Part shown: in pieces, positions 23,031-61,574 of the stretch
How the letters are laid out: every line of letters begins with the position of its first letter
Position numbering within the stretch: position 1 is the first letter of the stretch
The notes under the pieces: generated by a model
Seen by the model: only the letters and a program-made list of their open reading frames with translations
The model's database searches: none
Told to the model about the DNA's origin: nothing
Made by a program: the position numbers and the translations under genes
NCBI GenBank assembly: GCA_018818405.1
Contig: JAHIRY010000038.1
Span: 35,449 to 99,448 of the forward strand
DNA: 64,000 nucleotides
Reading direction: 5' to 3'
From: Patescibacteria group bacterium
GTDB taxonomy: Bacteria > Patescibacteriota > Patescibacteriia > UBA11705 > JABHMO01

Positions 23031-23250
23031 CTACGACGACAGCAGACTCTGAATCGAGTTCAGAGTGACAGGTGTGGGGCGCGAATTACTAACAATTGCA
23101 ATGAACCTCGAATAGTTGCCACAGTTTCGCAAATACGCAAATGCACAGTTACTCTTACTCCGTCGTCGGCTCTCCCATCGTCACTCTGAACTCGATTCAG
23201 AGTCTGCTTCCGGTTCGCTTAGTCGATTCGCTTACAATGTCGTCATCGCG
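23031..23250. repeat. palindromic repeat family R4, units a (inverted) and b (direct) (core CGTCACTCTGAACTCGATTCAGAGTCT plus ~45-nt tail)
   Basis: 23045-23069 and 23178-23250 are mutually inverted copies; core is itself a 9-bp-stem hairpin. Confidence 0.8.
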
Positions 23251-23267
23251 CAACAACTCACATACCG

Positions 23268-23573
23268 CTAATTCCACGTTGCGCTCAAATCTTCAAAATT
23301 AGGATTTTCCTTTTTTATCAAATCAATTTTCCACGGCCGATGCCATCGCTTCAATTGTTTTTCTCTGGCAATGGCAGAATACACATCCGTAAAATCCTCG
23401 TAATAAACTAATTTTTGTAAACAATAACGAGCGCTGAATGAATTTGGATTGTATTTATTTTTGTGTTCCCACAAACGCCGCTCAACATTGTTCGTCACGC
23501 CAATATAAAAAACCGTATTCCTTGTGTTTGTAATAATATATACATAATAATTACGTTGAACAAATTTTCGCAT
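23268..23573 (-). CDS. small GIY-YIG nuclease (YhbQ/COG2827-like)
   Basis: YVYIITNTRNTVFYIGVTNNVERRLWEH GIY-YIG core; 101 aa; paralog of 33838. Confidence 0.8.
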   Translation of the reverse strand: MRKFVQRNYYVYIITNTRNTVFYIGVTNNVERRLWEHKNKYNPNSFSARYCLQKLVYYEDFTDVYSAIAREKQLKRWHRPWKIDLIKKENPNFEDLSATWN

Positions 23574-23676
23574 ATCATTTTTTAAATCATGCTAACTAAT
23601 ACTTTCAGAATAGCACAATTTTTTTTCGACCGGAATAAACAACGAAACAATCGCGCCTTCGTTCAGCGAAACTTCC

Positions 23677-23905
23677 GACGCTAACAGACTCTGAATCGAG
23701 TTCAGAGTGACGGGGTGCGGCGCGTCGTCTCATCATCATCATGATTATCCTCGTCACTCTGAACTCGATTCAGAGTCTCCCTCCGGTTTCACCTAGTCGG
23801 TTCCGCTACGACAGCGTCCGCCCGCCCCTCCTCATCGTCACTCTGAACTCGATTCAGAGTCTCTTTTCGGTTTCGCTTAGTCGATTCGACTGCAACGGCG
23901 TCGCG
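23677..23905. repeat. repeat family R4, units c (inverted), d and e (direct, tandem)
   Basis: 23677-23712, 23749-23819, 23833-23905 share the CGTCACTCTGAACTCGATTCAGAGTCT core and tail. Confidence 0.8.
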
Positions 23906-24045: not shown

Positions 24046-24756
24046 ATGAAGACGAGAACCATGTTTCTCTGTGTCCTGTTCCTTTTTTTGACAACCGTAG
24101 CCGCATCCTGCGGCGAAGACCCCACCAACGCGCCGGGCGAAGGCGAAGGCGAAGGCGAAGGCGAGGGTGAAGGCGAGGGCGAAGGCGAAGGCGAGGGCGA
24201 AGGCGAGCAGCTCGGCTCGCTTACCGTCACCTCCGCGCCGCACGACGGCGCGCAGATCATCATGGATGGCGTGGACACCGGATTCGTCACCCCGCACACG
24301 TTCGACGAGATCAGTGTGGGACGGCACGAGGTCGAGCTCAAGCTCGACGGCCGGATCCAGGCCTACATCCCGCAGGAGGTCGTCCTGACCTCCGGCAAGG
24401 AAGACAGCACCGTGCCGCCAAGCGCCACGGCCGAAATCTTTCTGTATCTGGATCTGACGGGAAAATGGTATGAAGCGGAAATAAATCGGACGACCGAAGC
24501 AGTGGTTTTCCCAAGTGCCAGACTCCAACAACCGGAAATCTCCTGCCCAACCACGGAGATGGCGGCAGGCAAATTTCCCCTATACAACACACTGTGCATC
24601 GAGAGAGACGACTCTCTCTCTCTCTGCAAAGACCATGCCAGCGACTGTTATGGAGCCGAAGTCCGCGGCTCCGTTCAGGAAAACGGCACGAAGATCGAAG
24701 TCACAGATTTCTTTTTTTCTCCGCCGAGGGTACTACACTACACTCTGGTGCAGTGA
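24046..24756 (+). CDS. PEGA-domain lipoprotein paralog with (GE)13 low-complexity linker, strikingly GC-rich (~60%)
   Basis: signal plus lipobox AASC; LTVTSAPHDGAQIIMDGVDTGFVTPHTF aligns colinearly with the 22270 protein; SD AAGGAGG. Confidence 0.75.
   Translation: MKTRTMFLCVLFLFLTTVAASCGEDPTNAPGEGEGEGEGEGEGEGEGEGEGEGEQLGSLTVTSAPHDGAQIIMDGVDTGFVTPHTFDEISVGRHEVELKLDGRIQAYIPQEVVLTSGKEDSTVPPSATAEIFLYLDLTGKWYEAEINRTTEAVVFPSARLQQPEISCPTTEMAAGKFPLYNTLCIERDDSLSLCKDHASDCYGAEVRGSVQENGTKIEVTDFFFSPPRVLHYTLVQ
24136..24207 (+). repeat. (GGCGAA/GGCGAG)n hexanucleotide tandem repeat encoding (GE)n
   Basis: about 11-12 tandem hexamers seen directly. Confidence 0.85.
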
Positions 24757-33781: not shown

Positions 33782-33860
33782 GTCGCACTTCGACAAGCTC
33801 AGTGTGACAGGGGGGGGGAAGCGCCCCCTCTCACTTGTCAGGCTGAGCCTGCCGAAGCCC
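33782..33860. repeat. repeat family R5 (inverted unit, G9/C5 hairpin, partial direct unit), downstream of the GIY-YIG gene
   Basis: GTCGCACTTCGACAAGCTCAGTGTGAC, AGGGGGGGGGAAGCGCCCCCT, CTGAGCCTGCCGAAG. Confidence 0.75.
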
Positions 33861-34143
33861 CGTTCGACAACTCCTTCAATCTTTCAATATTCCCCTCAAT
33901 TAATGCAACTTTCTTTCTGCGGCTCCAACCTTTTATTTGTTTTTCTCTGGCGATCGCGTCATTCACATAATAATGTTCTTCCGCATATACCAATCGAACC
34001 GGCCGCCGCGAATATGTATAACTTTTTTCGCTTATTCCCAAATTATGTTCATCCAGCCTTCGTTCAATATTATTTGTTATTCCCGTATACAAACTCCGAT
34101 CGCTGCATTCAACTATATAAACCGTGTATATCTTTCTAAACAT
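33838..34143 (-). CDS. small GIY-YIG nuclease, second paralog (ORF to 34167; likely start is MFRKIY at 34143)
   Basis: YTVYIVECSDRSLYTGITNNIERRLDEH GIY-YIG core; C-terminus is read through the R5 repeat. Confidence 0.8.
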   Translation of the reverse strand: MFRKIYTVYIVECSDRSLYTGITNNIERRLDEHNLGISEKSYTYSRRPVRLVYAEEHYYVNDAIAREKQIKGWSRRKKVALIEGNIERLKELSNGASAGSA

Positions 34144-34160: not shown

Positions 34161-34311
34161 GTCGCACTTCGGCAGGCTCAGTGTGACATGAATTTAACTG
34201 TCACACTGAGGCTAAAAGCCTGTCCCGAGTCGCATCGAGCGGAAGCGTGCTATCATCGTCATCGCAATAACTGTCACACTGAGCCTGCCGAAGTGCCGCT
34301 TCGCTTAACAC
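34161..34311. repeat. repeat family R5: one inverted and two direct units (GTCACACTGAGCCTGCCGAAGTGC...TTCGCTTAACAC)
   Basis: 34161-34187 (inverted), 34200-34222, 34273-34311; 11-bp stem between the first two. Confidence 0.8.
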
Positions 34312-35295: not shown

Positions 35296-36138
35296 TCACC
35301 ATTTTAAATTCCGCGCCAAGAAAATCCAGTCTTCCACTGACAATTCCTGCGCGCGAACCGTCTCCTTCAAACCCAACTCGTGAAAAACGCTGAGAATCTT
35401 CAAAAGAGGAATATTCAATTTTTCCGCCAGATTGCTCTTTAAAAGTTTTCGCTTCGCGCCAAAACCCGCGCGCGCTATTTCAAAAAGCCGCGTTGAATCA
35501 ATATTATATTTATCGGAACGAATCCGACCGAGTCTGATCACCGCGCTTTCCACTTTCGGTACGGGAAAAAAACAATTGTGGCTGACGGAAAAAAGAATCT
35601 TCGGCTCGCAGGAAAAACGGACAGCCAATGACAGCAAATTCATATCGCCCGCGCGCGCCAAAATCCGCTGAGCCACTTCCTTTTGAATCATGAGAATCAT
35701 TTCTTCCGGCGGATAATCGCATTCCAAAAATCGTCTGATGAAATTGCTCGTAATATTGTAAGGCAAATTGGCGACAATCTTGTACGGTTTTCCGCCAAAC
35801 TCTTTCTTTATCTCAGCCATCGGTATTTTCAAAATATCAATGTTTTTTATTTTTAAATTTTCATATTTCTTTCCCAATTCTTCGGCCAAAACATCTGACA
35901 ATTTTTTGTCTTTTTCCACCGCGAGAACATGGCCGGTCCGCTCCGCCAGCTCAGCTGTCAAAAATCCGAGGCCCGGTCCGACTTCCAGCACATTGACGGT
36001 CTTTTTTAATTCCGCCGAATTGATAATTTTCTTCAATATATTTTTATCAATCAAAAAATTCTGGCTGAAATATTTTTTCGGCATCAATTGATATTTTTCC
36101 AATAATTCGAATATCTCTTGTTTCATTTTGAATAACAA
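35296..36138 (-). CDS. rsmA: 16S rRNA (adenine1518/1519-N6)-dimethyltransferase
   Basis: FSQNFLID, LEVGPGLGFLT SAM motif, NLPYNIT. Confidence 0.85.
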   Translation of the reverse strand: MLFKMKQEIFELLEKYQLMPKKYFSQNFLIDKNILKKIINSAELKKTVNVLEVGPGLGFLTAELAERTGHVLAVEKDKKLSDVLAEELGKKYENLKIKNIDILKIPMAEIKKEFGGKPYKIVANLPYNITSNFIRRFLECDYPPEEMILMIQKEVAQRILARAGDMNLLSLAVRFSCEPKILFSVSHNCFFPVPKVESAVIRLGRIRSDKYNIDSTRLFEIARAGFGAKRKLLKSNLAEKLNIPLLKILSVFHELGLKETVRAQELSVEDWIFLARNLKW

Positions 36139-36180: not shown

Positions 36181-36238
36181 CGGAAATGTGGAATTGTAAG
36201 GGTTCAACATGTTGAACCCTTACAATTCCACATTTCCG
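36181..36238. repeat. 58-bp perfect palindrome (29-bp arms) between prfB and rsmA
   Basis: CGGAAATGTGGAATTGTAAGGGTTCAACA|TGTTGAACCCTTACAATTCCACATTTCCG verified base by base. Confidence 0.9.
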
Positions 36239-36262: not shown

Positions 36263-37357
36263 CTATTTTACGATGCTGCGCAAATACGATTCCATTAGCG
36301 GCATCAATTCTCCATCCAAAACCGCGTCAACATCAGTTGCTTCAAATCCGGTTCGATGATCTTTTACCAATTTGTAAGGATGAATCACATACGATCGCGC
36401 CTGATTTCCCCAGGCGGCTTCCGTGTATTCGCCGCGCAATTTTTGCCGTTCTTCTTCATGCTCGGCTTCAAAATATTTTTGCAATTTTGATTTCAAAACT
36501 TTCATTGCCGTTTCCTTGTTTTGCAATTGCGATCTTTCATTCTGACAGCTGACAACGATTTTTGTCGGCAGATGCGTTATTCTCACCGCCGAATCAGTCT
36601 TGTTCACTCCCTGCCCTCCGTGTCCGCCCGCCCTGAAAGTATCAATCCGCAAATCATTCGGATCGATTTCAATTTCTTTCAATTCTTCCACCATTGGCAA
36701 AACTTCAACCAAGGCAAAAGAAGTATGCCTCATCTTTTCCGCGTCAAAAGGAGAAATGCGCACCAATCGATGAACGCCGTTTTCGCTTTTGAAATAACCG
36801 TAACTGTTTTTTCCCGACACTTCAAACAAAACGCTTTTTATTCCAGCCTCTCCGCCGGATGAGATCGTGATTATTTTCGAATTCCAATTTCGCTTTTCAC
36901 AAAACCGCAAATACATTCTCAAGATCATTTCCGCCCAATCCTGCGCGTCTGTTCCGCCGGCTCCGGCATGAATGGCAACAATGCAATCGCCGCGATCGTA
37001 TTTTCCCTGAAACAACAAATCGATTTCCAGCTCATCAAATCTTTTTTCCAATCGGCCAAGCTGTTCTTCAATTTCTTTTTGCAGATTAACTTCCCTGTCT
37101 TCCTTGTCCATTTGCGCCAATTCTTCCAGATCTTTTATTTCATTTTTCATTTTTTCCCAATTTTCGATTTCCTGCTCAAAATCACTCGCCTCTTGACTCA
37201 CTTGTTTTGCTCGAGACTGATCGCTCCAAAATCCGGGCCGGCTCATTTGTTCTTGCAATTCAATGATTCTCTGTCTTTTTTCATCAATTCGAATAAGTTG
37301 CCAGACTTTTTGCAGGCGGTCTTTCAATTCTCCAATTTTTATTATTGTTTCATTCAC
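36263..37357 (-). CDS. prfB: peptide chain release factor 2, single uninterrupted ORF (no programmed +1 frameshift)
   Basis: SPF tripeptide, GGQ motif (GGHGGQGVNKT), RF2-specific N-terminus. Confidence 0.9.
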   Translation of the reverse strand: MNETIIKIGELKDRLQKVWQLIRIDEKRQRIIELQEQMSRPGFWSDQSRAKQVSQEASDFEQEIENWEKMKNEIKDLEELAQMDKEDREVNLQKEIEEQLGRLEKRFDELEIDLLFQGKYDRGDCIVAIHAGAGGTDAQDWAEMILRMYLRFCEKRNWNSKIITISSGGEAGIKSVLFEVSGKNSYGYFKSENGVHRLVRISPFDAEKMRHTSFALVEVLPMVEELKEIEIDPNDLRIDTFRAGGHGGQGVNKTDSAVRITHLPTKIVVSCQNERSQLQNKETAMKVLKSKLQKYFEAEHEEERQKLRGEYTEAAWGNQARSYVIHPYKLVKDHRTGFEATDVDAVLDGELMPLMESYLRSIVK

Positions 37358-47486: not shown

Positions 47487-47526
47487 ACAATATTTAAAAT
47501 AAAAATTAATTCGCAATGAATTTTTA

Positions 47527-47669
47527 TCGTTTCATGGCGGTGTAGAGACGCATTGCAATGCGTCGCTACATCGCCATGAAGCGATGACGGCGGCGTGTGT
47601 TTTGTCGCGACAATATACGGCGCGGCGGTAAGTAGCGGCGGGTCTAGACCCGCCGCTACTTACCGCCGC
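47527..47669. repeat. GC-rich nested palindromes: a 9-bp outer stem enclosing an 18-bp perfect palindrome, plus a separate 48-bp perfect palindrome
   Basis: TTCATGGCG...GACGCATTGCAATGCGTC...CGCCATGAA; GCGGCGGTAAGTAGCGGCGGGTCT|AGACCCGCCGCTACTTACCGCCGC. Confidence 0.85.
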
Positions 47670-48488: not shown

Positions 48489-51400
48489 TTATTTACACAC
48501 AGGGAAAGCAAGCCCCGGCACAACACTGTAATTGTAAGTATAACCGTCGGAGTTTGTTTCCAATCGATATTTCAATTCATAACAATTTTGCAAGCCTGAA
48601 GCGGAAGCTTTGTATGAATAAACCGGATGATCGGTTTCATGCCCGGCGTAAATATTGGCAAAAAGCTGATTACTGCTATTATAACATGTTTCGCCGTTAT
48701 AGCCTTGGGCGCAGTTGACGCAGGCAAATCCCGGAACAGCGCATTGATAACTCAAATCCGGACATTTCAAAATCGGAGTTTCGTCCTCGACCGAGCAAAT
48801 TTCACCGGTATAATCGCCGCTCTCCGCCGGTGTTTCCCATTTGAAATGATTCTCCGGATCTCTCGGCAATTCCGCGCCGAGTTCCCGACCCAATTCTCCC
48901 TGCCATGACGGCCAAACGCTGAATGTTTGTCCGCGGACATAAGATCCCGATTCGAGCATTGGGACTTTATTTCCATGAGCATTCTTGTAATTTTCCAGAT
49001 AAATTCTCATCAAAACCATGTCGCTGATTCTCTTTGTATCGCGAATGATTTGCGATTTGTCCGGATCAGAGCTCGCGTCGCGGTTCAGATTGAACTTGAT
49101 GTATTTCACCATTTGGCTGTAAATGTTCATTGTTTCCGCGCCGGAATTTCGGGAATAACCCAGCAAATAAATATTATTGTAAACCGTCTTGTTAGCGGAA
49201 ATATTGGCCGCTGAAATATAAATGCTCGAACCGTCCTGCGCCGCAGCATAACAATTTCCCTGAAGATCGCAATCCACTTCCACTTTTGAAGTGCTCGCAG
49301 CCGGATTCGGCGCATAATTCTGATACCACACATCAGGCGGCAATGCTTCCGGATTTTCATAAATTCTGAGAGAAATAACATCAGCTGACGGAATTCCGTC
49401 CGGAGTGAAGAAATATTGCGCCAAGAGTTTCGGCTCCTCAGCCGGATCATCGGCGGAAACGCATTTTTTGTCATCCGGAAAATCAATCAATCCGTTTCGA
49501 TCATTGTCAATTCCGTCTCTGCATTGATTCTCGGATTGAAGACGCACTTGCTCTGCCGCCGCTCCCACATCCGAGCCGAATTGGCTGAACAGATTTACAT
49601 AATTAAATGAACCGCCAGAACAATGATCATCTCCGGTACAAACGCCGATCGCGTTTTGCTGATCATCGGAATTTTTCAAATTATGTTCAAAATCAAGATG
49701 AACAATCAAATTCGGATCATTCTGATCAGTTAAAACATATTGATTTGCAATTATCTCTCCGGTTGTTCTTGCCGTTTTCCAAATTCTAAAATCTTCCAAA
49801 TACCCGTTCAAGCCTCTATCCGGAGTTCCAAAAGATGAACCCACATAAATATCTTTATTCTGAGAAACGCCAGCTACAGGAAAGCTGGAAGCAGCAAAAT
49901 TGCTTCTTTCTCCATCAATAAAAATCTGATACTGCAATCCTCCCGGATGTTCTCCGTCATAAACGACCGAAATTGCATGATACCCTGCAGAAACCGATTG
50001 CGTTGTCTGCAATTTGATGGAATTTAACTGACCATATCTCAGATTCCAATAAACTTTGTTTACCAATCGACCATTTTCCTGAATCGGAAACAAACCAATC
50101 AAAATCTGCGGACATCCTCCGGGAACGGCAGCTTCACAATTGAGATTTTTCGTAAAAATCGGTTGAAACACTTGCCCCGACGGCTCCGGCACATATATCA
50201 GTGATTCAATAGTCCACGGTTTGCTGAAATCTGAAAAGTCCAATTTATTTTGCAAAGCGTCGGTATATGGAATTCGCAATTTATCGTTTTGATCAAATTT
50301 AATGGCAAATCTGTTCGGCGGGATTGCCACTGCCGGCGATTCTTTCAATTTCGGCAGATCATCCGTCGTGTCATTTCCTTCGCCGAAATCGCGGCAGTAG
50401 AAGAGACCGACATTATATTCTTTTTCATTCAGATGAACCGGTACTTTTGTTCCCGTTCCGGTTTCATATTCCAACAAATCCCATTTATCCTCTTCAAAAT
50501 GTTCCGGCGACCATGGATTCTCGCAAATCATCATTTCTATTGTTGCCGCGCCTTCGACAAATGCTCCGGTCGAATCAGCGGAATTAACATCAGCGCAAAC
50601 GCAATTTTCCGCGCCTTCCGCACAGGCGACCGCCGGATCCTGCGTCGCGTCGCGGCATACGCGGCGAATCTCGCCCAGAAAACCGCCTTGGTCAAGGCCC
50701 AATTTGTCAACCGTTATCACCGCTTTCGCGTGAATCTGAGTTTCTCCGTTTTTCGCCGTTGTTGTCACTTTAACCTCGTTTTTATTCTTTTTATCAGATC
50801 CGTTCTGCACAACATTGCAAACTTCCTCATCCTGTCCTTCCACCGCTTCCATCGAACAAATTTTCCCGACAATGGAAGAATCATCGGTTCTCCATTCCCA
50901 GCGCCAATCATAAACTCCGGGAATTGCCTGAATCAAATTTCCTTTGCTCTTGGCGATTGCCCTGTAATCTTCCACATGATCCTGATCGAGAATCAATCGG
51001 TAATCAGGATCCAGACTCACCTGATCGAGCTTGCAAACTTCATTGCCGGTTGAAAATTGAGTGGTGAATTGTCCCAAAACATCGCCGCAAATATTGGTCA
51101 TGTCATCCATTACAACCAAGATTTGTTTTCCGGCGGGCAGAGCTTGTTTCGGAGTAATCATAATGGCGGTTCTTCTGTCAGCCGGATTTTGCTCGCCCGT
51201 GCTCTCAACCGAAACATTATCTATCTCAATACGGCACAAATAAGCTTCCTGCGCAAATGTCACTTTTGCCAATAAATTCTTCAGCGCCAATTTCAATCTC
51301 TGGAAAAATCCCATGGCAGTCTCCGCCGGACATGCCTCTGCGCTCAAATAAAATAATTTTATATTTGTTGAAATATTTTGCTCTCCGATTTTCTTGTTGA

Positions 51401-54400
51401 ACGGAATATAAATCAATGCATTCCGGCAAACACCCGCCGAATTTCTAGCCGGAACTATGTTATTCACATCCATGCGAATATCCGGAGACACGCATTGTCT
51501 GTCGCGAAAAGTCAATTCCGTTGTTCCTGTTTTTGAAATCGGATTATCGCCCGTTTCAGTGCCGGTGGCGCTGATATCGGTGCTGTCCTGCGCATAATGC
51601 TTTTCCGGATCATACAAATTCAGAATATCAATATTGCCGACAACCGTTGCCGACTGATACGGACTCTGACCGATGGACTGACCGCCCGGCTCGCATTGAT
51701 CATCCTCTCCGCTTCCAACAATTCCATCTCCGCAGGCAGAGCCGGCTTCAACCGATGAACCTTGATTCAGACATTTTCCATTGCAATATGAAGGAAATCG
51801 ACAGACGCATCCCTGATCAACGCCATAGACGCAACCGGAACCATCGGCTTTTTTGCATTCTGACTCGCATTCTTCATTTCCATCAATCGTTCCATTTCCG
51901 CAACAATTCTCCGTCACCGCGCCGATACAGCTCGTAAATCCTCTCCACAAACATCTTTCATTGCAATCCGGATTGTCAGCCAATGAACAGACACAGCCCT
52001 GAACTCCGTAAGCGCAAGCTGAATTATTGGCGTTTTTACAAATGGCTTCGCATTCTTCTCCGCCTTCCAGCTCTCCGTTGCCGCAGAGCGCTGACGCCGC
52101 CGGCTCTCCTTTTTTATATTTTGAACCTTCATTTAAACATTTGTTCGAACAACCGTCTCCATTGGAAGTATTGCCGTCATCGCAATCTTCGCCTTCTTCC
52201 ACTATTCCATTGCCGCAGACAAATCCGGCAGCGGTTCCCGCTTTCAAACAACCGGCAGTGCAAGCAGGATCCTTTGCCACGCAAACGCAACCTGCATCTT
52301 CATCTTCCGGGTCGCAGGCTTCGCCATCTTTCAAGAATTGACAAGCGAAATCGCATTCTTCCGTATATGCAATATCTTCGATCGAATAAGTTCCGTCTTC
52401 CCTGCCGTTGCCGCAACATTTTTCATTTTCCGCTCCGGTGCAAAGATTCGGCACCGCCTCGCGCAAACAGTTGGCGGAACAACCGTCTCCATTGGCAATG
52501 TTATCAATTACATCGCATTCTTCACCGCTTTCCCTGATCCCGTTTCCGCAAACCGATGCCAAAGAACCGCTGCCTCTGGACAAACATTTGTCAGTGCAAA
52601 ATTCCGGCAACCCCAAATGATAAAGCGTATCGGAAATTGTCGCCACATTCGGCTTGCCGCTCATCCATGCCCAAGTATAATCATATTGATTCAAAATCTG
52701 TCCCTCCGGATCGCAAGCATCCGGCGCGCTCCTCGGCAGAGCTGAATATGAGATTCTCTGTTCCTTCGTCTCGCTGAGATAACTCTGAGGCATGACTGAA
52801 ACCGAATTGATCCGGCATTTCTCTTCTGTATTTTTTGTTTTGAAAACCCAGCTGAACGAGTCCGTTGTTCCTTGTTCCGCTAGCGCGGTGCTGTAATTCA
52901 AACCTGTCAGATCGACTCCGCTCGCACTCTGAGTATTTCCGGAGATTACCACTCGATAAAATTTGTTCGGCAGTAATTCGTTGCTCGGATTTACAGTCAA
53001 TCGGTTGGTCAGTTTTCCCTCTGCGTCCAATTCGAATTGATAATTCGGAATACTTCCCGCCAAATCAACTTCATCAAAAGTGACGCAATCGGCGCCCGCT
53101 CTGCAGGCAAACAATTTAACATTATCCGTATTCAAGGTTTCAGACCCGTCGACAGCAACATTAATCAAACTTGAAGATTTCATCTGAATATTGAAATCAG
53201 CGCCAAAACCGGCATTAATGCACGCTTCATCGCAAGCCGGAAAATATGAAACCACTTTCGGATCAGCGAATTTTATTTCCAGTTGCGCGTCCTTTGAAAC
53301 ATTGCCGGCAGTACGGAAAATCATTGAATCGGTCGCGATGGTTGCGTATGCTCGCACTCCGACAAGTTCATCAACGGTTGTTTCCAAATTTACCGGATTC
53401 GCTTTTGCCTCGGCTGACAATCCGAAAATTCCAATATCTTTTCGCAATCCATCTTCATCGAATGCGTTTCTCTGGAATGAAACTCGCTCGCTGTTCTCCC
53501 GCGGATCATTCGCCGTCCAGCGCCAATTTTCATCCATTAGCGAAATATCCTGGCACTGATATTGTCCGGAAACCATGAAAGATTCCGTGTCATCCAGTGA
53601 ATCAATCAAACCTTTGATCGGCTTCATCAACAATGTATCGGCAGAACACAATTCCGGCAAAGTTCTGAATTGCCATGAATAATCTCTGGGCATGAATTCT
53701 CCTTTTTCTGTCGCAATACCGTCCGCGCCTCCTTTTATTTCAACTTTATACAATGTATTTTTGAACAAATTGGCGTAAAATCTTGGACCCTCCGCTATCG
53801 GAGCCGCTCCGCCCTTAAACAAAGACTTATTCAAAGTTCTGGCCAAATGAAATTCAGTCAACTGTTTTCCGGAAACTTCACACTCGCAATTCGGCGTTCC
53901 GGCGGCGCAAGAACTTCCGTTTCTGAGACAAACGGCAGATTCATTGGTCGTGCCGATATCATTCGGATCAATCGCCCCGACCGGCTGAGTAATGCAATTC
54001 TCTTCGCACTTGTCCAGATCGCATTGGCCGAGATCAACGGTGCAAGTGCAGGCAGCGGAAGTTTCAACGCATTCTTCACTTTTATTTTCCTCGCATCTCA
54101 GCGTACGCAGAGGATACTCGCATTTTTTTATCGTAATATTATTATTCAATGTCGCTGAATTGATAATCATGTTAAAAGTTCCGGAAATCATTCCATTCGG
54201 ACAAGCGTCAATAGAACCTCTGAACGGCGAAGGCGATTGCGGCAAATATCCGCGAGTGCAGGATCGCTCCAATATTTTCGGGACTTTCGGCAAGGAGCCG
54301 GTGCTCACAATCCAGGCAAACTCAGAATCAGCGCCCTCTGCCGGAGCAACGCATCCGTCTGCAAGGTTTGCGCAAATTCCGGTTGCGCAACATATTCTTC

Positions 54401-56957
54401 CTTCACCGCAACTTTCTCCGCTGCAACTGCCGACAGTAAAATGAACTTCATTGCTTTTCTGCGCATTATCATTATTCTCAACATAAACTTTTCCGGAAAC
54501 CGCTTCAGCCGGAATACGCGCTTTCTTAATGGCAGTGTTAGCCCAAGCCGCAGTTTCAGTCACCTCAATTCCCGGATCATCAGCCACTCCTGTTTTGGCA
54601 AATTTAAGTGTGTAATTCGCTTTCGCTCCGAAATTTTGTCCGCTCAAATCCACCAAAATTCCTCGCGGACCATTGTCCGGAGAAATAGAACAAATCGCCG
54701 GACCGGCAGACTCTTCATTTACCGCCAAATTCTTCGGTTCACTGCGAACAGCATCGGAAGTCACCAGCACAACGCCGTAAGTTCCGGCCGGCAGAGTATC
54801 GGAAATTTTTACTTTTACCTCAGAATCATTCCAGCTGTTATTCTCACAACCAAGGCCGGCATTCGTTTTTTCTCCAGCCGCATCCAACAATTCCACCCAG
54901 CCGACTTTTGTTCCGAAATTTTCTCCGCTCAGAGTAATAATTTGTCCTTGTGGCGCCGGACTCGGCGAAATTTCTTTTATTTCCGGCAAATTCTCCAACA
55001 CGGAAATTCTGAAACGAACCGGATTGCTCACAATAAAAGTGCAGACGCAACCGTCTGTTCCTTTTTCACATTCTTTATTATCAACATTAATGCAACGCTC
55101 GCCCTGGCTGACGGAAACATTTACCAACCCTGATTTTAAATTCGGAATTTGTATTTTTGTAATTCTATCTCTAGTCCATTGCGCGCCAGCTGACAACTGC
55201 GTGGGATTTTCTCCGAAATAAACGCGATATTCCGCCGCGCCCGGATCATTGGACGAACCAAAATTGGTTCCGTTCGCCACGACGCTCTGTCTCAGATCGC
55301 CGGCCAGACAATTGGAGCACTCCGCTCCTTCGCAAACGCAATCTTCCCGCGCAACCGAGCACAATCCCGGATATGTCAGCGTTTCATTTATTACAAAATC
55401 TTTTTTCCACCCGCGATCATTTATTGTGTCATCATATTTATTGTCCTTGTTTACAATTTTAATCGGACCGTCGGTCGCGCCTTCCGGCACTTTTGCGATC
55501 ACTTGCCGGTCAGACCAAGCGAAATTATCAGCGCAGCCCATTTCCGCTTCAATATAAACCGGATTATTGTCACTATCAAGTCCGCCGGTAAAATAAACTT
55601 TGCTTGTTCCGGCGACAAAATTTTTAAATCCCGAACCGTAGACGGAAACCAGATTTCCCGTTGCGCTCTCATCGGGCGTCACATTTGTAATTACCGGCAA
55701 AGCAATACATTTATTCGGTTCATCAACGCCTTGCTCGGCGCAATAATATCCGCTCGCGCAATCAACATCATCGCGGCAAGCGCCGTCGCAAGCTCCGCAC
55801 TCGGCTCGTCCGCAAACAGCGACTCCGTCTTCAAAACATGATTCAGGCAAAACTTTCACTCTTATTTGCTTTGTCGCGGAATGATCATCCACATCATCAG
55901 CCTTTGCTTCCAGAGTATGCATTCCTATTGCCAGATCCGCCGTGTCCCATTCAAAGGAAGATTCTCTCGGCGTGGCTCCGTCTTTGCCTTCTTCTGCGAC
56001 CAGCTCGCCGTCAGCGGAAAATGAAATCGCGCTAATGCCCGAATCATCGACAGCCGAAATATTCATATCAACAAAATCATTGACAGAAACCTTGGCTCCG
56101 TCCAGCGGCGAAGTGAAACTGACTTGCGGCGCGGTGACATCAACATTTTCACCGGTTGTAAAATCCGATCGGCACACACTGCCGGGAGCGCAAGACAATC
56201 CCTTTCCGCCGGTCGATTTTATTTCCGTCGGAACAAGAGAGACCGAATATTCGGTATTCGCGCCAAAACATTTTAAATTATCATTCGGCGCCGGACATTT
56301 TTCAGATGGAGTAAATACAACTTTACTGCCAATGACCACAAAATCGCCGGCAACCGCATTACCCTCTTTGTCAATTATCTTTACTGTTTGATCATTAATT
56401 GTTCGAGAATTTACGGTCGAAGAAAAATTGATGCGGACTTTTACATTTCGCACTTTCAATTCAGTACTCGGCGAAATGGATCGTCCGACAAAAGATCGGA
56501 CATTAGCGACTTGCAAACCGCCGATCGGCGCCGCGCCTTGAATTTCAACTCCCGGTCCGGCCTGCAAACCGGTTGCTTCTGACAATCGGCTGATAACAAA
56601 AGATGTAATCGCGTAAGCTGAAAAAACAATTGCCAAACCGATAAAAGAATTGATTAAAATTTTCTTTGCTTTCGCCACTTTCGCCTCTTCTCCTCCGCTC
56701 GTCATGTAAACAAAGCCGCCGTACAAAACCAAAACAATCGCGATCACGCCGACAAAACCGAGAATAATTCTGATAATATTGCCGATCGTCACGCGCAGAT
56801 CAACTCCGGCTGAAAGTCCGGTCGCCTCGCCCACTGTTTCCACTCCCAGATCCGGCGCCTGAGCAAACACTCCGCTTGCAAATGAAAATCCGCTGACAAT
56901 TATGAAGAATATTATCAGCCATTTAATCAATTTTTTTATTTTTCCTTCGTTAAACAT
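48489..56957 (-). CDS. giant (2822 aa) surface protein: pilin-like two-helix N-terminal anchor, Myxococcus-type Cys-rich repeats, LamG/ConA-like domain
   Basis: N-terminus YMTSGGEEAKVAKAKK between two TM helices; repeats CGNGxxExGEECDxxxxxxGDGCSxxC; GYLEDFRIWKTARTTGEI LamG_3-like. Confidence 0.85.
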   Translation of the reverse strand: MFNEGKIKKLIKWLIIFFIIVSGFSFASGVFAQAPDLGVETVGEATGLSAGVDLRVTIGNIIRIILGFVGVIAIVLVLYGGFVYMTSGGEEAKVAKAKKILINSFIGLAIVFSAYAITSFVISRLSEATGLQAGPGVEIQGAAPIGGLQVANVRSFVGRSISPSTELKVRNVKVRINFSSTVNSRTINDQTVKIIDKEGNAVAGDFVVIGSKVVFTPSEKCPAPNDNLKCFGANTEYSVSLVPTEIKSTGGKGLSCAPGSVCRSDFTTGENVDVTAPQVSFTSPLDGAKVSVNDFVDMNISAVDDSGISAISFSADGELVAEEGKDGATPRESSFEWDTADLAIGMHTLEAKADDVDDHSATKQIRVKVLPESCFEDGVAVCGRAECGACDGACRDDVDCASGYYCAEQGVDEPNKCIALPVITNVTPDESATGNLVSVYGSGFKNFVAGTSKVYFTGGLDSDNNPVYIEAEMGCADNFAWSDRQVIAKVPEGATDGPIKIVNKDNKYDDTINDRGWKKDFVINETLTYPGLCSVAREDCVCEGAECSNCLAGDLRQSVVANGTNFGSSNDPGAAEYRVYFGENPTQLSAGAQWTRDRITKIQIPNLKSGLVNVSVSQGERCINVDNKECEKGTDGCVCTFIVSNPVRFRISVLENLPEIKEISPSPAPQGQIITLSGENFGTKVGWVELLDAAGEKTNAGLGCENNSWNDSEVKVKISDTLPAGTYGVVLVTSDAVRSEPKNLAVNEESAGPAICSISPDNGPRGILVDLSGQNFGAKANYTLKFAKTGVADDPGIEVTETAAWANTAIKKARIPAEAVSGKVYVENNDNAQKSNEVHFTVGSCSGESCGEGRICCATGICANLADGCVAPAEGADSEFAWIVSTGSLPKVPKILERSCTRGYLPQSPSPFRGSIDACPNGMISGTFNMIINSATLNNNITIKKCEYPLRTLRCEENKSEECVETSAACTCTVDLGQCDLDKCEENCITQPVGAIDPNDIGTTNESAVCLRNGSSCAAGTPNCECEVSGKQLTEFHLARTLNKSLFKGGAAPIAEGPRFYANLFKNTLYKVEIKGGADGIATEKGEFMPRDYSWQFRTLPELCSADTLLMKPIKGLIDSLDDTESFMVSGQYQCQDISLMDENWRWTANDPRENSERVSFQRNAFDEDGLRKDIGIFGLSAEAKANPVNLETTVDELVGVRAYATIATDSMIFRTAGNVSKDAQLEIKFADPKVVSYFPACDEACINAGFGADFNIQMKSSSLINVAVDGSETLNTDNVKLFACRAGADCVTFDEVDLAGSIPNYQFELDAEGKLTNRLTVNPSNELLPNKFYRVVISGNTQSASGVDLTGLNYSTALAEQGTTDSFSWVFKTKNTEEKCRINSVSVMPQSYLSETKEQRISYSALPRSAPDACDPEGQILNQYDYTWAWMSGKPNVATISDTLYHLGLPEFCTDKCLSRGSGSLASVCGNGIRESGEECDVIDNIANGDGCSANCLREAVPNLCTGAENEKCCGNGREDGTYSIEDIAYTEECDFACQFLKDGEACDPEDEDAGCVCVAKDPACTAGCLKAGTAAGFVCGNGIVEEGEDCDDGNTSNGDGCSNKCLNEGSKYKKGEPAASALCGNGELEGGEECEAICKNANNSACAYGVQGCVCSLADNPDCNERCLWRGFTSCIGAVTENCCGNGTIDGNEECESECKKADGSGCVYGVDQGCVCRFPSYCNGKCLNQGSSVEAGSACGDGIVGSGEDDQCEPGGQSIGQSPYQSATVVGNIDILNLYDPEKHYAQDSTDISATGTETGDNPISKTGTTELTFRDRQCVSPDIRMDVNNIVPARNSAGVCRNALIYIPFNKKIGEQNISTNIKLFYLSAEACPAETAMGFFQRLKLALKNLLAKVTFAQEAYLCRIEIDNVSVESTGEQNPADRRTAIMITPKQALPAGKQILVVMDDMTNICGDVLGQFTTQFSTGNEVCKLDQVSLDPDYRLILDQDHVEDYRAIAKSKGNLIQAIPGVYDWRWEWRTDDSSIVGKICSMEAVEGQDEEVCNVVQNGSDKKNKNEVKVTTTAKNGETQIHAKAVITVDKLGLDQGGFLGEIRRVCRDATQDPAVACAEGAENCVCADVNSADSTGAFVEGAATIEMMICENPWSPEHFEEDKWDLLEYETGTGTKVPVHLNEKEYNVGLFYCRDFGEGNDTTDDLPKLKESPAVAIPPNRFAIKFDQNDKLRIPYTDALQNKLDFSDFSKPWTIESLIYVPEPSGQVFQPIFTKNLNCEAAVPGGCPQILIGLFPIQENGRLVNKVYWNLRYGQLNSIKLQTTQSVSAGYHAISVVYDGEHPGGLQYQIFIDGERSNFAASSFPVAGVSQNKDIYVGSSFGTPDRGLNGYLEDFRIWKTARTTGEIIANQYVLTDQNDPNLIVHLDFEHNLKNSDDQQNAIGVCTGDDHCSGGSFNYVNLFSQFGSDVGAAAEQVRLQSENQCRDGIDNDRNGLIDFPDDKKCVSADDPAEEPKLLAQYFFTPDGIPSADVISLRIYENPEALPPDVWYQNYAPNPAASTSKVEVDCDLQGNCYAAAQDGSSIYISAANISANKTVYNNIYLLGYSRNSGAETMNIYSQMVKYIKFNLNRDASSDPDKSQIIRDTKRISDMVLMRIYLENYKNAHGNKVPMLESGSYVRGQTFSVWPSWQGELGRELGAELPRDPENHFKWETPAESGDYTGEICSVEDETPILKCPDLSYQCAVPGFACVNCAQGYNGETCYNSSNQLFANIYAGHETDHPVYSYKASASGLQNCYELKYRLETNSDGYTYNYSVVPGLAFPVCK

Positions 56958-56984: not shown

Positions 56985-58916
56985 TTACTCCGCGCTCGGA
57001 AGAGGACAAGAATCCGCCGACACCTTTTGCAATGGGAAATTCGCTTCGTTCAAATTCGGACAACAAGAAGTTCCCGATCCCGCATCCGTGCAGTCAGCAA
57101 ACGATTTTGTCGGACTGAAACAATTTTGTCTGGAATCCCGCACCGTTGATTTGATAATCGGCGTATATTTCGGCGAAGCATTCGCAGTCTCCGGACTGAA
57201 CGCGCCATGATTAATTTCAATCTTAGCATCATCAACTTCACCGTCAGCCGTTTCTCCCAGATTCGCGTCAAACCAAGAAGTAAAATCTTCTCCAATCAAA
57301 GCAACCTCCCGATCAACCGATTCCGCGTCCAATCCTTCATTGAAAGTCGCAGACAAAATAACATTTACCGGCAATGAATCGCTGGCATTGTTCGGTTCAA
57401 GCAATGTAATCCAAGGCGGAGTCAAATCAAGCGAATCGCCGGTTTTGAATTTCCATTGAAAATCATCGGTGAGCGGACCGTCGCATTTATCATTAGCATT
57501 TCCATCCAGAGAATTTCCCGCCATATCCATAATTCCCGTGCCCGGAGTGCCCAGACAGCCTTCGATCAAATCAGCTGCCAATGCTTTGCCGGTAATTTCA
57601 ACATTGCTCGGCAAGCAAAATACCGGCTCGCCGCAAGAATTTTCTTGCACTCCCTCGCACGGAGTATTGCTGATAAACTGAATTGTTTTATAACTATTGA
57701 TTCCGACTTTCCAGTCGCCGGGAATATGATTTGTTTCACAATCATCTTTTGCATGATCCGGACCGAAGAGCTGCGCTTCATTGTCATTGTCAGCCGCATT
57801 GCACACCTGCTCCTGGCTCAACGGAGGAATCACCGGTTCATTGAAATTTATTGAAACTATTTGATTCAAATACACATAACCTTGTTTGTCCAACGCTCTA
57901 TCGCTCACATCAGGATATTCATGATCAGCCGGCACAACCGAACGAATCTGCGGCGGAATATTGTCAATGGTCGTGTTTGTCAGAAATCTCCATTTGTAAT
58001 CAGGCGTTGCCAGATTAAAAATGCTTTGGCCGTCCGATCCTTCTCTCAGAATTCCGGAGGTTAACTGAACAATATAAGAAACTTCATTTTCCGAACTGCC
58101 CATATGTTCATTGGCGCTTTGGCCGTACGGATTGAAAATAATTGTCCTGTGATCAGCGGTAATCATCGCATAACCGGGAACTTGTAATTCCGCGTTGCCC
58201 GGAACTTCCTTGCAATCCATCATTTTTTCTTCCGCGCACCCGAAAACCTTGAATGATTCGGTCAGCGAACCGCATATTCTTCCATCCGCCATTGCCGGAC
58301 ATGGATAAGCCGCGTTCGCAGATCCGATGACAGACGCCGGATCAACCGGCAAACGAAATGTCACAAGAATCATTGAATTGCGCGGCACTCCGGTCTGCTC
58401 GGGCAATGGATAATGGCTCTGAATCACCGAGCCGAAAGCTCCGCCTGATAAACTTACTCCCGGTCCGCCTCGTCCGGCGATTGTAACTCCGCCTCCGCCA
58501 CCGCCCGCGCCGACCAATCTATTGACAACAAAAGAAACGATCGCGTAAGCGGAAAAAATTATTACCAATCCTATGGCTCCGTTTATCATCCATTTTTTTG
58601 CTTTTTCCACCTTGGCCGGCTCTCCTCCGCTGGTCATGTAAAGCGCGCCCGCATACATGACAATGATTATCGCGATCGCGCCGACAAAACCGAGCGCGAT
58701 TTTGATAATATTTCCAATAATTACTCTGGGATCCTGCGCCGTGAGTATCGTTTGCTCGCCCACCGCAGTCAGTCCGGCTGTAATCTCAGACTCCGCCGCT
58801 TGCGCGTGAACCGAAACCGGCGAAAATAAAAAAATCGCCAAAACAAATATAAAACAACCGGCAGTTATCTTGATTATAAAATCCAACTGATTTGATTTTA
58901 TTTTGTTTGGCATCAA
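56985..58916 (-). CDS. 643-aa membrane/surface protein sharing the same N-terminal pilin-like anchor, then a Gly-rich linker
   Basis: DPRVIIGNIIKIALGFVGAIAIIIVMYAGALYMTSGGEPAKVEKAKKWMINGAIGLVIIFSAYAIVSFV aligns with the N-terminus of the 2822-aa protein. Confidence 0.75.
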   Translation of the reverse strand: MMPNKIKSNQLDFIIKITAGCFIFVLAIFLFSPVSVHAQAAESEITAGLTAVGEQTILTAQDPRVIIGNIIKIALGFVGAIAIIIVMYAGALYMTSGGEPAKVEKAKKWMINGAIGLVIIFSAYAIVSFVVNRLVGAGGGGGGVTIAGRGGPGVSLSGGAFGSVIQSHYPLPEQTGVPRNSMILVTFRLPVDPASVIGSANAAYPCPAMADGRICGSLTESFKVFGCAEEKMMDCKEVPGNAELQVPGYAMITADHRTIIFNPYGQSANEHMGSSENEVSYIVQLTSGILREGSDGQSIFNLATPDYKWRFLTNTTIDNIPPQIRSVVPADHEYPDVSDRALDKQGYVYLNQIVSINFNEPVIPPLSQEQVCNAADNDNEAQLFGPDHAKDDCETNHIPGDWKVGINSYKTIQFISNTPCEGVQENSCGEPVFCLPSNVEITGKALAADLIEGCLGTPGTGIMDMAGNSLDGNANDKCDGPLTDDFQWKFKTGDSLDLTPPWITLLEPNNASDSLPVNVILSATFNEGLDAESVDREVALIGEDFTSWFDANLGETADGEVDDAKIEINHGAFSPETANASPKYTPIIKSTVRDSRQNCFSPTKSFADCTDAGSGTSCCPNLNEANFPLQKVSADSCPLPSAE

Positions 58917-59781: not shown

Positions 59782-60024
59782 TTAATATCGTCGTCTTCGC
59801 TGCGGTTCTTCCGGCAATCGGCCGATCTTTTTCATGTATTCATGCGTTTCCCGTTTTTCTTTTTTCACGAGAGCGCTCTTCCGGCGCATGTTTCGATTGA
59901 CATCGCCCTTGAAAAAACGAATCTTCTTCGCCTGCAACAGCAAACCGCTCTGCATCAGCCGCTTGTTAAAGCGCCGAATAAAAGCTTCAAAAGTTTCGCC
60001 TTTTTTTCTCTTTGAATAAACCAT
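59782..60024 (-). CDS. rpsU: 30S ribosomal protein S21 (ORF to 60066; the SD GAAGGAG indicates the MVYSK start)
   Basis: IRRFNKRLMQSGLL...AKKIRFF, C-terminal RRRRY. Confidence 0.9.
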   Translation of the reverse strand: MVYSKRKKGETFEAFIRRFNKRLMQSGLLLQAKKIRFFKGDVNRNMRRKSALVKKEKRETHEYMKKIGRLPEEPQRRRRY

Positions 60025-60067
60025 TGTTTCGACTCCTTCTAGTAAAAATTTAATTATATTAACCACC

Positions 60068-60185
60068 CGTCACACTGAGCCTGCCGAAGTGCGCATTCGC
60101 CTAAAACGCCATCACCGCCCGTCACGCTGAGCCTGCCGAAGCACGCTCTTCTCTGTCACGCTGAGCCTGCCGAAGCGCACCTTCA
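60068..60185. repeat. three direct R5 units (GTCAC[A/G]CTGAGCCTGCCGAAG...TTCGCCTAAAAC), remote from any GIY-YIG gene
   Basis: units at 60068, 60121, 60157; same family as 33782-34311. Confidence 0.8.
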
Positions 60186-60236
60186 CTTAAACGTCGCCCA
60201 CATATTACCGCAAACATTCACTTCCGTCAAGATCCC

Positions 60237-61574
60237 CTATTTCTTCAACTTTTTCTTCAACTCAGCCACCACTCTCTTCGCGTTCACCACTTCCTGAATT
60301 CCGCTCTCCATGTCGCGCAAAATAACGGTTCCCTCTATCACTTCCTTTTGTCCGAGAATCAACACGAATTTCGCGCCGAGCTTTATCGCCGTATCCAGCT
60401 GAGCTTTCAGCGCGCCTTTTGTGAGATTTGCTCTGACTGAAAAATTTTCCTTGCGCAAAGCTTCAAAAAATGAAAAAGTCTTTTGTCTCGCCTGCTCGCT
60501 GATCTGAGCGACAAACACATCCGGCGCCGGCAAATTTGGAATTTCGCATTTGTTCACTTTCATCCGGCTGATCACTCGTTCGATTCCCATTGTAAATCCC
60601 GCGGCCGGCGTAGCTATTCCGCCCAACATTTGAATCAGATAATCGTAACGCCCGCCTCCGGCCAATGACAGCCGCGCGCTCTCGTCTTCGCCTTCTTTCT
60701 TTTCTTGTTTTTCCAGCGGATGAATTTCAAAAACCGTTTTCGTATAATAATCGAATGTTCTCAAAAGCGTTGGATCCAGCTTGTAGGGAATTTTCAATTC
60801 ATCCAAATATTCCAAAACCTTGAACAAATGATTGCGGCAATCATCGCACAACCAATCCATTGTTTGCGGAGCGTCTTCTTTCAATTTAACGCATTTGACG
60901 CTCTTGCAAATTAAAAATTTCATGGGATCTCTTGTCATCCTCTTTCGGCAATCCAGACAAACCGCGCCTCTTTTTGATTTTAAATATCCGCCCAGCGCTT
61001 TTGCGTATTCCACGCGGCAGCTCGCGCATCCGATGCTGTTCAGTCTGATCTCCGAATCAAGTCCGAAATTTTTCAATAAATAATGTCCGATAATAATCAA
61101 TTCCGCGTCAACCGCCGGCGACTTGTCTCCGATAATTTCAAAACCGACCTGAGTGAACTGGCGCAACTTTCCGGCATCGACTTTTCCCCGCCTGAACATC
61201 GGGCCGCAATAATAAAGTTTAATCGGCTGAGGCTGATTGTCCATATTATGATCAATATAAGCTCGGCAAGTCGACGCTGTTCCTTCCGGCCGCAACGCCA
61301 CTTTTTCTCCCTTGTCAATGAAATGAAAAATTTCTTTTTCCACAATGCCTCCTTGCTTGAAAAGAGTATGATTGAACAATTCATATTTTTCGAGGAGCGG
61401 AGTACGCATTAATCTGAAACTGTAATCGCGCACAACTTTTTTTATTTGTCCCTCCACAAAATCCCAATATTTTTCTTCAGGCGGAAGCACATCTTTCATC
61501 CCTCTTAACAAGGGCGGAGTTTTGATCACTTTTATTTCTTCCTGAGGCTGTTCTTCTTTTTTTCTTCGAGGCAT
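60237..61574 (-). CDS. hisS: histidine--tRNA ligase
   Basis: class-II motifs, LRGMKD N-terminus, GGGRYD motif 3. Confidence 0.9.
   Translation of the reverse strand: MPRRKKEEQPQEEIKVIKTPPLLRGMKDVLPPEEKYWDFVEGQIKKVVRDYSFRLMRTPLLEKYELFNHTLFKQGGIVEKEIFHFIDKGEKVALRPEGTASTCRAYIDHNMDNQPQPIKLYYCGPMFRRGKVDAGKLRQFTQVGFEIIGDKSPAVDAELIIIGHYLLKNFGLDSEIRLNSIGCASCRVEYAKALGGYLKSKRGAVCLDCRKRMTRDPMKFLICKSVKCVKLKEDAPQTMDWLCDDCRNHLFKVLEYLDELKIPYKLDPTLLRTFDYYTKTVFEIHPLEKQEKKEGEDESARLSLAGGGRYDYLIQMLGGIATPAAGFTMGIERVISRMKVNKCEIPNLPAPDVFVAQISEQARQKTFSFFEALRKENFSVRANLTKGALKAQLDTAIKLGAKFVLILGQKEVIEGTVILRDMESGIQEVVNAKRVVAELKKKLKK

Follow-up and report, generated by a model that had tools for sequence, protein, structure and literature searches.

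Probable Ssn-like, nuclease-associated hairpin repeats inserted ahead of an S21-like gene in a Patescibacteria genome

Our analysis concerns three copies of a short hairpin repeat that lie between hisS, the gene for histidine-tRNA ligase, and a ribosomal protein S21-like gene (rpsU) in a 64,000-nt stretch of DNA from a Patescibacteria group bacterium (assembly GCA_018818405.1, contig JAHIRY010000038.1, positions 35,449 to 99,448; hereafter the window, numbered from its first letter). We consider it likely that these units are dispersed, Ssn-like, nuclease-associated hairpin repeats, which in this lineage were inserted into the 5′ untranslated region (5′ UTR) of the S21-like gene. The repeat family travels with a clade of single-domain GIY-YIG nucleases of about 100 aa, of which the product of g1, a gene elsewhere in the window, is the copy in the source genome.

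Three repeat units and an insertion between hisS and the S21-like gene

Three plus-strand copies of GTCACRCTGAGCCTGCCGAAGYRC lie within 60069-60179, starting at 60069, 60121, and 60155. In particular, a search of the 64-kb window for the 24-nt core GTCACGCTGAGCCTGCCGAAGCGC with at most 3 mismatches returned 6 copies, against 0.00 expected (100 shuffles): 3 in the spacer, all on the plus strand, at 60069-60092 (2 mismatches), 60121-60144 (1 mismatch), and 60155-60178 (0 mismatches); and 3 around g1, at 33837-33860 (+), 34164-34187 (-), and 34273-34296 (+). This result confirms the original prediction, made from the letters of the window, that the spacer units are the same repeat as the one around the GIY-YIG gene at 33838, about 26 kb away. 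Specifically, unit 1 is identical to the copy at 34163-34187 at 25/25 positions, and shares 87% identity with the copy at 34273-34311 across 39 nt.

The three units do not form the regular tandem of 45-nt units that had been described. Their start-to-start spacing is irregular (52 and 34 nt), Tandem Repeats Finder reports no array at 60068-60185 at scores of 30 or more, and the conserved unit is about 25 nt long. After the core, units 1 and 3 continue into about 15 nt of lineage-specific sequence (YTTCRCYTAAMAC), a 3′ extension that they have in common with the copy at 34273; unit 2 is truncated, its 3′ extension being curtailed by unit 3. Units 1 and 3 are related by a compensatory double change in the stem (CACT/AGTG vs CGCT/AGCG), and each has C directly 3′ of the palindrome. 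None of the 7 copies of the GTCA hairpin repeat in the window falls within coding sequence other than at the ends of g1. Other readings of the units were considered and dropped: a CRISPR-like array (the spacers between units are only 27 and 10 nt), an intrinsic terminator (the hisS-S21 spacer is without a U-tract terminator), and a decayed gene fragment (there is no coding similarity past the 25-nt core). Searches of the literature with the motif sequence gave chance primer matches only for 12-mers and no match for 16-mers.

The location that had been given for the units, between hisS and rpsU and upstream of rpsU on the minus strand, is borne out: hisS is identified by TIGR00442, and the S21-like gene, for which both profile matches (PF01165 and TIGR00030) fall below the curated cut-offs, has syntenic counterparts of 80-83 aa in six relatives. 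The hisS and g1 products each have a 100% identical NCBI protein from a Patescibacteria group bacterium. YqeY lies downstream and a signal peptidase upstream in the wider neighbourhood. We compared the spacer with those of the six relatives, in which hisS is 64-69% identical and the gene order der-lytR-lepB-hisS-S21-yqeY is kept. In 4 of the 6 (L126, L127, L128, and L130), the spacer is 72-81 nt long and repeat-free, and comprises TTGACT-17 nt-TAATAT/TATAAT at the place equivalent to the promoter predicted in the window, an AT-rich leader of about 40 nt, and a ribosome-binding site (RBS). One further relative has a 115-nt spacer without the motif. The remaining relative, a Falkowbacteria metagenome-assembled genome (MAG; L131, JACRNX010000030.1), has a 244-nt spacer in which a distinct variant, GTCATGCTGAGGCTCTCGAAGCATGAC, precedes the rpsU promoter; this copy is an independent insertion of a related hairpin variant. 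L131 also carries an extra gene for a 23S-rRNA-intervening-sequence protein (PF05635) between lepB and hisS (regions noted in L131: 2578-2955 and 4330-4573).

Since 4 of the 6 orthologous spacers hold only a promoter and a short leader, we read the 135-nt block that contains the three units as a lineage-specific insertion, a presence/absence polymorphism and not a leader conserved in all relatives. The dispersal of the repeat that had been proposed therefore stands. The three same-orientation units would have entered between the −10 box and the RBS in this lineage only. The insertion splits the promoter from the leader, for which reason MAFFT misplaced the spacer gap, and the register was set manually against L127. 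An AT-rich remnant of the original leader is present at 60025-60062, with the leader end (GGTTAATATAATTAAATTT...GAAGGAG) kept. The block is bounded on the plus strand by CCAC at 60063-60066 and 60198-60201, possibly a 4-nt target duplication or simply a junction ambiguity, and it has no terminal inverted repeats.

The predicted promoter of the S21-like gene begins 6 nt past the hisS stop codon. The units, which had been placed in a promoter region, come after this promoter and fall within the 5′ UTR, whose predicted length the insertion raises from about 36 to about 171 nt; any influence of the block on S21 expression is probably incidental. Both hisS and rpsU use the motif strand as their template, and the mRNA carries the complement only. 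With a GC skew of −0.15 across the window, the motif strand is also the C-rich one, and we infer that it is the leading-strand template.

The hairpin repeat and its link to small GIY-YIG genes

Comparison of copies across genomes reveals an oriented unit with the consensus Y-GTC-[A-N-N-C-T]-GAGCCTGCCGA-[A-G-N'-N'-T]-C, comprising a covarying stem of 4-5 bp and a conserved 11-nt loop. Covariation was assessed in 130 unique copies from other genomes, at positions that the search pattern left free. Pairs 6-22 and 5-23, which have the top mutual information among all column pairs, are Watson-Crick in 122/130 copies (4 pair types) and 120/130 copies (3 pair types), respectively, and A4-T24 is present in 92/130 copies. 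The stem is most often 5 bp long. A pyrimidine (T or C) occupies position −1 in 118/130 copies, and C directly follows the palindrome in 84/126, compared with a C content of 35% in the flank background. GTCA was fixed in the search pattern, and is also present in motif variants recovered by protein sampling. Loop variants at other loci (GAGCTTGTCGA, GAGCCTGTCGA, GAGTTTACCGA, GAGCGAAGTCGA, GAGGAACGA, and GAGGCTCTCGA) all retain GAG at the 5′ end and CGA at the 3′ end of the loop; tandem G·A pairs and a G-C pair may extend the stem, or a protein may read the loop directly.

The description of the units as structured repeats is thus upheld for the stem, which is backed by cross-phylum covariation. 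The predicted stability of the units is the same as that of shuffled sequence on either strand, as RNA or as DNA; because folding gives no stability beyond shuffles, thermodynamics cannot back that description. A generic scan of the window for GTCA followed by a perfect hairpin gave 29 matches vs 22 ± 5 in shuffles and is of no use as a detector.

We scanned for the exact core GTCANNCTGAGCCTGCCGAAG (19 specified bases) with one genome per species; the figures given here are among the matches listed. The exact core occurs in at least 8 phyla, including Bacteroidota, Chloroflexota, Nitrospirota, Eremiobacterota, Patescibacteria, Bacillota, and Pseudomonadota, and 115 of 132 cross-phylum copies (87%) lie outside open reading frames (ORFs) of at least 90 aa. 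Relative to codirectional genes, orientation is unbiased (30 sense vs 26 antisense). Neighbouring copies within 150 nt form 65 inverted and 29 direct pairs; the 29 direct pairs make same-orientation tandems, such as the one in the spacer, a recurrent arrangement.

The g1 gene encodes a protein whose homologues are 95-115 aa long, and Y9, Y19, R29, H33, and E67 are invariant in the g1-clade alignment (A1). Four repeat copies bracket g1, with the GTCA ends outermost. The repeat at 33837-33861 encodes the final eight g1 codons (…NGASAGSA) and the TGA stop, TGA being the complement of the TCA in GTCA. An unrelated protein in L087 also ends in …SAGSA, because its C-terminus, too, is encoded by a flanking repeat. 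Between the copies at 34187 (-) and 34273 (+), positions 34201-34250 hold a possible degenerate or long-loop unit (GTCACACTGAGGCTAAAAGCCTGTCCCGAG…), which resembles long-loop variants of Salegentibacter (L290) and Methylobacterium (L121).

The association of gene and repeat extends beyond the window. Among 119 loci sampled by motif, 7 carry a g1 or g2 homologue (g2 being the second small GIY-YIG gene of the window), in 6 of these 7 the gene is at most 80 nt from a copy, and the other 112 have no GIY-YIG gene within 8 kb. Among loci sampled by g1-type protein, the gene is flanked on either side by the motif family in all 5 cellular loci (Falkowbacteria, Ignavibacteriaceae, Salegentibacter, Bacteroidales, and a JGI contig), and related hairpin variants surround plasmid-borne g1 homologues in Sphingomonas, Spirosoma, Novosphingobium, and Methylobacterium. 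Protein clade and repeat type co-vary, both in the window and across phyla: g1-type proteins go with GAG...CGA-loop hairpins, and g2-type proteins with long-stem, NTS-like hairpins.

Relation to Ssn nucleases and competing explanations

Chenal et al. (Nat Commun 2025, PMC11893778) describe the Ssn proteins, 94-aa single-domain GIY-YIG nucleases (CDD cd10448), as the first site-specific endonucleases of single-stranded DNA (ssDNA). The ssn genes are flanked by oriented hairpin repeats (NTS-ssnA-NTS; NTS CGTCATTCCCGCGMAVGCGGGAATCYRG), generalized as SRM repeats from a few proteobacterial models, and these repeats occur in hundreds of intergenic copies, most of them remote from the nuclease gene (PMC11893778). 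On ssDNA, Ssn attaches to the hairpin and nicks the strand upstream, a few nucleotides 5′ of GTCA; it has no activity on double-stranded DNA, RNA, or the reverse strand; cleavage needs the three nucleotides 5′ of the palindrome (the conserved GTC), binding needs the C just after the palindrome, and the identity of the loop is dispensable for SsnA (PMC11893778). In N. meningitidis, SsnA lowers transformation by NTS-bearing DNA (PMC11893778). The main text of that paper makes no mention of Patescibacteria or Bacteroidota. The remoteness of the spacer units from any nuclease gene, correctly noted in the original prediction, is expected and not odd, because most Ssn/SRM copies are likewise remote from their gene (PMC11893778).

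The g1 system resembles Ssn/SRM in four respects: the g1 product, of about 100 aa, consists of a single GIY-YIG domain with intact catalytic residues; inverted copies of its own repeat stand on both sides of the gene; the repeat is an oriented hairpin with a conserved 5′ (Y)GTC-A abutting the stem and a preferential 3′ C; and the family has many dispersed, mainly intergenic copies far from the gene. It differs in having a stem of 4-5 bp and a conserved 11-nt loop, in place of a stem of about 8 bp and a free 3-nt loop; in a predicted stability that is marginal where that of NTS is high; and in having a protein of a putative sister clade and, as host, a Patescibacteria MAG of the candidate phyla radiation (CPR). 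We take the g1 repeat system to be a divergent and very widespread variant of the Ssn system reported in 2025, not a new kind of element. By analogy with Ssn, the g1 product would recognize the plus-strand hairpin on ssDNA, bind it, and cleave it, and the system would serve in processing ssDNA, such as incoming transforming DNA or replication and repair intermediates, and not in regulating rpsU. Binding, cleavage, and the processing role are thus carried over from Ssn, whereas the anatomy and covariation of the repeat, its association with the gene, and its insertion come from the comparisons above.

As a proxy for the SsnA clade, we scanned metagenomes for the canonical NTS core and obtained 7 small GIY-YIG genes beside it (L145, L180, L213, and others), 3 of them in an NTS-gene-NTS arrangement; these NTS-flanked genes are homologous to both window proteins, g1 and g2. 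The g1 product scores 97-106 bits against proteins adjoining GAGCCTGCCGA motifs. From these comparisons, g1 would belong to a sister clade equidistant from core Ssn and from UPF0213, Ssn-like by architecture and a candidate for formal membership. In the same scan, the exact "Neisseria" NTS core GTCATTCCCGCGNNNGCGGGAATC proved abundant in contigs from soil, sludge, sediment, and marine metagenomes, with at least 120 stretches carrying it (L132-L251), and is therefore far from Neisseria-specific.

Several observations weigh against the assignment of the spacer units to an Ssn-like system. First, as ssDNA the units have marginal predicted hairpin energies (−1.3 to −4.1 kcal/mol; z about 0), compared with −6.4 kcal/mol (z −2.7) for the hairpin around g2 and −8.9 kcal/mol (z −4.6) for the Neisseria NTS. 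Second, the loop is the most conserved part of the unit, and yet loop identity is dispensable for SsnA of N. meningitidis (PMC11893778). Third, the published SRM pattern, HGTCWYN(0-2)YYVSBRHN(0-5)WNVSBRGN(0-2)RNCYNB, which matches the canonical NTS, has 0 matches on either strand of the window; it also has 0 matches in five plasmid loci with g1 homologues. Fourth, the similarity of g1 to NTS-flanked Ssn proteins (41-59 bits) does not exceed that to UPF0213 proteins (49-59 bits), and its best relatives in the PDB are UPF0213 structures, 1ZG2 and 1YWL, both uncharacterized. Fifth, 24 of 25 distinct viral-contig loci with g1 homologues (IMG/VR, L252-L282; 41-57% identical) are without the repeats. 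The viral homologues may have a different role in phages, and, since the motif occurs in only 1 of the 25 loci and these loci have no other flanking inverted or direct repeat, they are uninformative for the association of gene and repeat. Finally, repeat copy counts for the source genome cover the 64-kb window only.

Two other groups of GIY-YIG proteins resemble g1 in part. UPF0213 proteins (B. subtilis YazA and E. coli YhbQ; structures as above) are of similar size, have a single GIY-YIG domain, and are about 40% identical to g1. However, B. subtilis yazA is part of the housekeeping operon trmNF-yazA-rsmI and has no hairpin repeats around it, whereas g1-clade genes are repeat-flanked and lie in variable, unrelated contexts; on sequence similarity alone, g1 could be a member. 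GIY-YIG homing endonucleases, such as I-TevI and the Seg proteins, cut duplex DNA at one long target site and bear an additional DNA-binding domain at the C-terminus. The g1 product shares their catalytic domain and their association with mobile DNA, but comprises only the catalytic domain of about 100 aa, and its associated sites are multi-copy hairpins.

A bolder version of the nuclease-associated reading, which we consider rather unlikely, is that the GAG...CGA-loop hairpin and the g1-type ("KGWSRxKKEALI") clade form a separate, truly mobile nuclease/site family outside the published Ssn/SRM definition, with an enzyme that reads the conserved loop or the G·A-extended stem. If so, a hairpin shared almost base-for-base by at least 8 bacterial phyla would belong to that family; the filled 135-nt site, set against its empty orthologues and bounded by CCAC/CCAC, would be direct comparative evidence of hairpin insertion; and the family would be a GIY-YIG counterpart of the REPIN/RAYT system, so far only hypothesized by the Ssn authors. 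Specifically, those authors raise a domesticated IS200/IS605-REP-like origin as an untried hypothesis (PMC11893778).

The main rival to the Ssn-like reading, and in our judgement an improbable one, is that the repeats came first and that the GIY-YIG gene rides along as a selfish passenger, either homing into the pre-existing hairpins or being retained between them. In that case g1 would neither spread nor use the hisS-rpsU copies, which would owe their dispersal to a different process in the host (replication slippage, recombination, or an unlinked enzyme). Consistent with this, most copies are far from GIY-YIG genes (112 of the 119 motif-sampled loci), gene-less inverted pairs are common (65 inverted vs 29 direct neighbour pairs), targeting of repetitive extragenic palindromic (REP) sequences by insertion sequences (IS) is documented (PMC1525189), and the repeat supplies the stop codon and C-terminus of g1, as expected for a gene landing in or beside a repeat. 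However, related Ssn proteins directly bind and cleave their flanking repeat in a sequence-specific manner (PMC11893778). That g1-type and g2-type proteins each keep to their own hairpin type, within the window as in other phyla, likewise argues against a passenger.

The REP/REPIN-RAYT system is served by TnpA-REP, a Y1 HUH transposase of IS200/IS605 type, and its repeats have a conserved 5′ GTAG before a stable imperfect palindrome. The spacer units might accordingly be REP/REPIN-type elements or miniature inverted-repeat transposable elements mobilized by a transposase (RAYT/Y1 HUH or IS) encoded elsewhere, with the GIY-YIG link coincidental; we consider this highly unlikely. The resemblance is real: both are short oriented hairpins with a conserved 5′ tetranucleotide that flank the gene of an enzyme which recognizes them, or in the case of g1 would recognize them, as ssDNA, both occur in both orientations as dispersed singlets, inverted doublets, and intergenic clusters, and the examined portion of this genome is 64 kb only. 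Yet the enzyme fold is GIY-YIG and not HUH; the 5′ motif is GTCA and not GTAG; the motif family flanks the GIY-YIG gene in all protein-sampled cellular loci (6 of 6); the insertion block has no terminal inverted repeats; and no transposase, integrase, or Y1/RAYT (PF01797) is present among 45 scanned window ORFs of 93-688 aa, two giant ORFs being unscanned. The REP-like behaviour that had been proposed is thus retained as an analogy, with a small GIY-YIG nuclease as the partner in place of a RAYT. We know of no demonstration of transposition by GIY-YIG or Ssn enzymes.

Equally remote is a functional RNA element, either a regulatory leader of the S21 mRNA or a stabilizer or terminator 3′ of hisS: the block lies between the predicted promoter and the RBS and so would be transcribed, and REP elements can serve as 3′ UTR regulators in E. 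coli (preprint), but the block is missing from 4 of 6 orthologous spacers, the sole motif-bearing relative has its motif upstream of the promoter, neither the whole spacer (z +1.23) nor the single units (z −0.8 to +1.8) fold as RNA more stably than shuffles, the spacer contains no terminator-like site, and cross-phylum copies have no orientation bias relative to flanking genes. Searches of Rfam gave 0 matches at the gathering score in the whole window, and, at E up to 10 in 59950-60300, two chance-level matches (E=0.44 and 9.3), neither of which overlaps the units.

On the Ssn-like reading, the gene-plus-hairpin architecture extends to CPR/Patescibacteria, with two presumably orthogonal nuclease/repeat pairs in one 64-kb window. 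A second, very widespread repeat type, with a short covarying stem and a conserved GAGCYTGYCGA loop, goes undetected by the published search pattern and has a sister clade of proteins as its partner, so that SRM censuses probably undercount such systems. The filled and empty orthologous sites provide comparative evidence that a hairpin can be gained by insertion even in the leader of an essential ribosomal-protein gene, and for annotation the spacer block is not to be taken as an rpsU regulatory element. A clade with a different recognition logic would, in addition, widen the set of programmable ssDNA cutters for biotechnology.

A second nuclease/repeat pair and other features of the window

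Coordinates of the features discussed are collected in Table 1.

Table 1. Coordinates of repeat units, genes, and signals in the window
Feature	Position	Strand	Details
Unit 1	60069..60107	+	core GTCACACTGAGCCTGCCGAAGTGCG (60069-60093), stem CACT/AGTG, loop GAGCCTGCCGA, 3′ extension CATTCGCCTAAAAC
Unit 2	60121..60145	+	GTCACGCTGAGCCTGCCGAAGCACG; stem weakened by one mismatch (AGCA, not AGCG)
Unit 3	60155..60193	+	core GTCACGCTGAGCCTGCCGAAGCGCA, stem CGCT/AGCG, 3′ extension CCTTCACTTAAACG
Insertion block, lineage-specific, 135 nt, holding the three units	60063..60197	+	vs orthologous spacers L126, L127, L128, L130
hisS, histidine-tRNA ligase	60237..61574	-	TIGR00442 E=5.8e-114
S21-like (rpsU) gene, 80 aa from ATG	59782..60024	-	PF01165 E=1.6e-3, TIGR00030 E=1.8e-4
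Predicted sigma-70-type promoter of S21 gene	60202..60230	-	TTGACG (60230-60225), 17-nt spacer, TAATAT (60207-60202); consensus scan
RBS of S21 gene	60033..60039	-	GAAGGAG; comparison of spacers
g1, 101-aa single-domain GIY-YIG, candidate cognate nuclease	33838..34143	-	PF01541 E=2.5e-18, residues 14-86
Gene-proximal copy, left end of IS-like repeat-gene-repeat unit	33837..33861	+	GTCAGGCTGAGCCTGCCGAAGCCCC, stem GGCT/AGCC
Gene-proximal inverted copy, right end of repeat-gene-repeat unit	34163..34187	-	identical to unit 1 (25/25)
Outer copy with 3′ extension	34273..34311	+	87% identity to unit 1 over 39 nt
Outer copy, variant loop	33784..33808	-	loop GAGCTTGTCGA
g2, GIY-YIG gene	23268..23573	-	PF01541 E=1.4e-16
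Family 2 copies (five)	23044, 23180, 23686, 23753, 23837	-, +, -, +, +	element 23037-23902
Two 71-nt direct units near g2	23748-23818 and 23832-23902		

The second GIY-YIG gene, g2, is surrounded by copies of a different hairpin (family 2), GTC-ACTCTGAA-CTCGA-TTCAGAGT. The g2 product scores 84-98 bits against NTS-flanked proteins and 25-30 bits against UPF0213, and on these scores g2 with its family 2 repeats (23.0-23.9 kb) is a clear, plain member of Ssn by sequence. The g2 element is flanked by two paralogous PEGA-domain genes (22237-22923 and 24046-24756), the second of which contains a (GGCGAA)x12 tandem repeat at 24136-24206 that codes for a Gly-Glu run.

The window also contains two palindromes. 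A perfect 58-nt palindrome at 36181-36238 (two 29-nt arms, 100% complementary, with no spacer), unrelated to the GTCA repeats, sits between the rRNA adenine dimethylase gene (35296-36138) and prfA (36263-37357), and an overlapping palindrome at 47526-47585 (32-nt arms, 91% complementary) lies between two genes for TSP3-repeat proteins. The two giant ORFs are at 24832-33753 (2973 aa) and 48489-56957 (2822 aa); for the counterpart of the latter in L001 and relatives, the annotation gives T4SS-pilin-like and Ig-like domains. The starts of the 2822-aa ORF and of a 643-aa T4SS-pilin-like ORF (56985-58916) are linked by a direct repeat of 141 nt (56661-56801 and 58593-58733; 73% identity).

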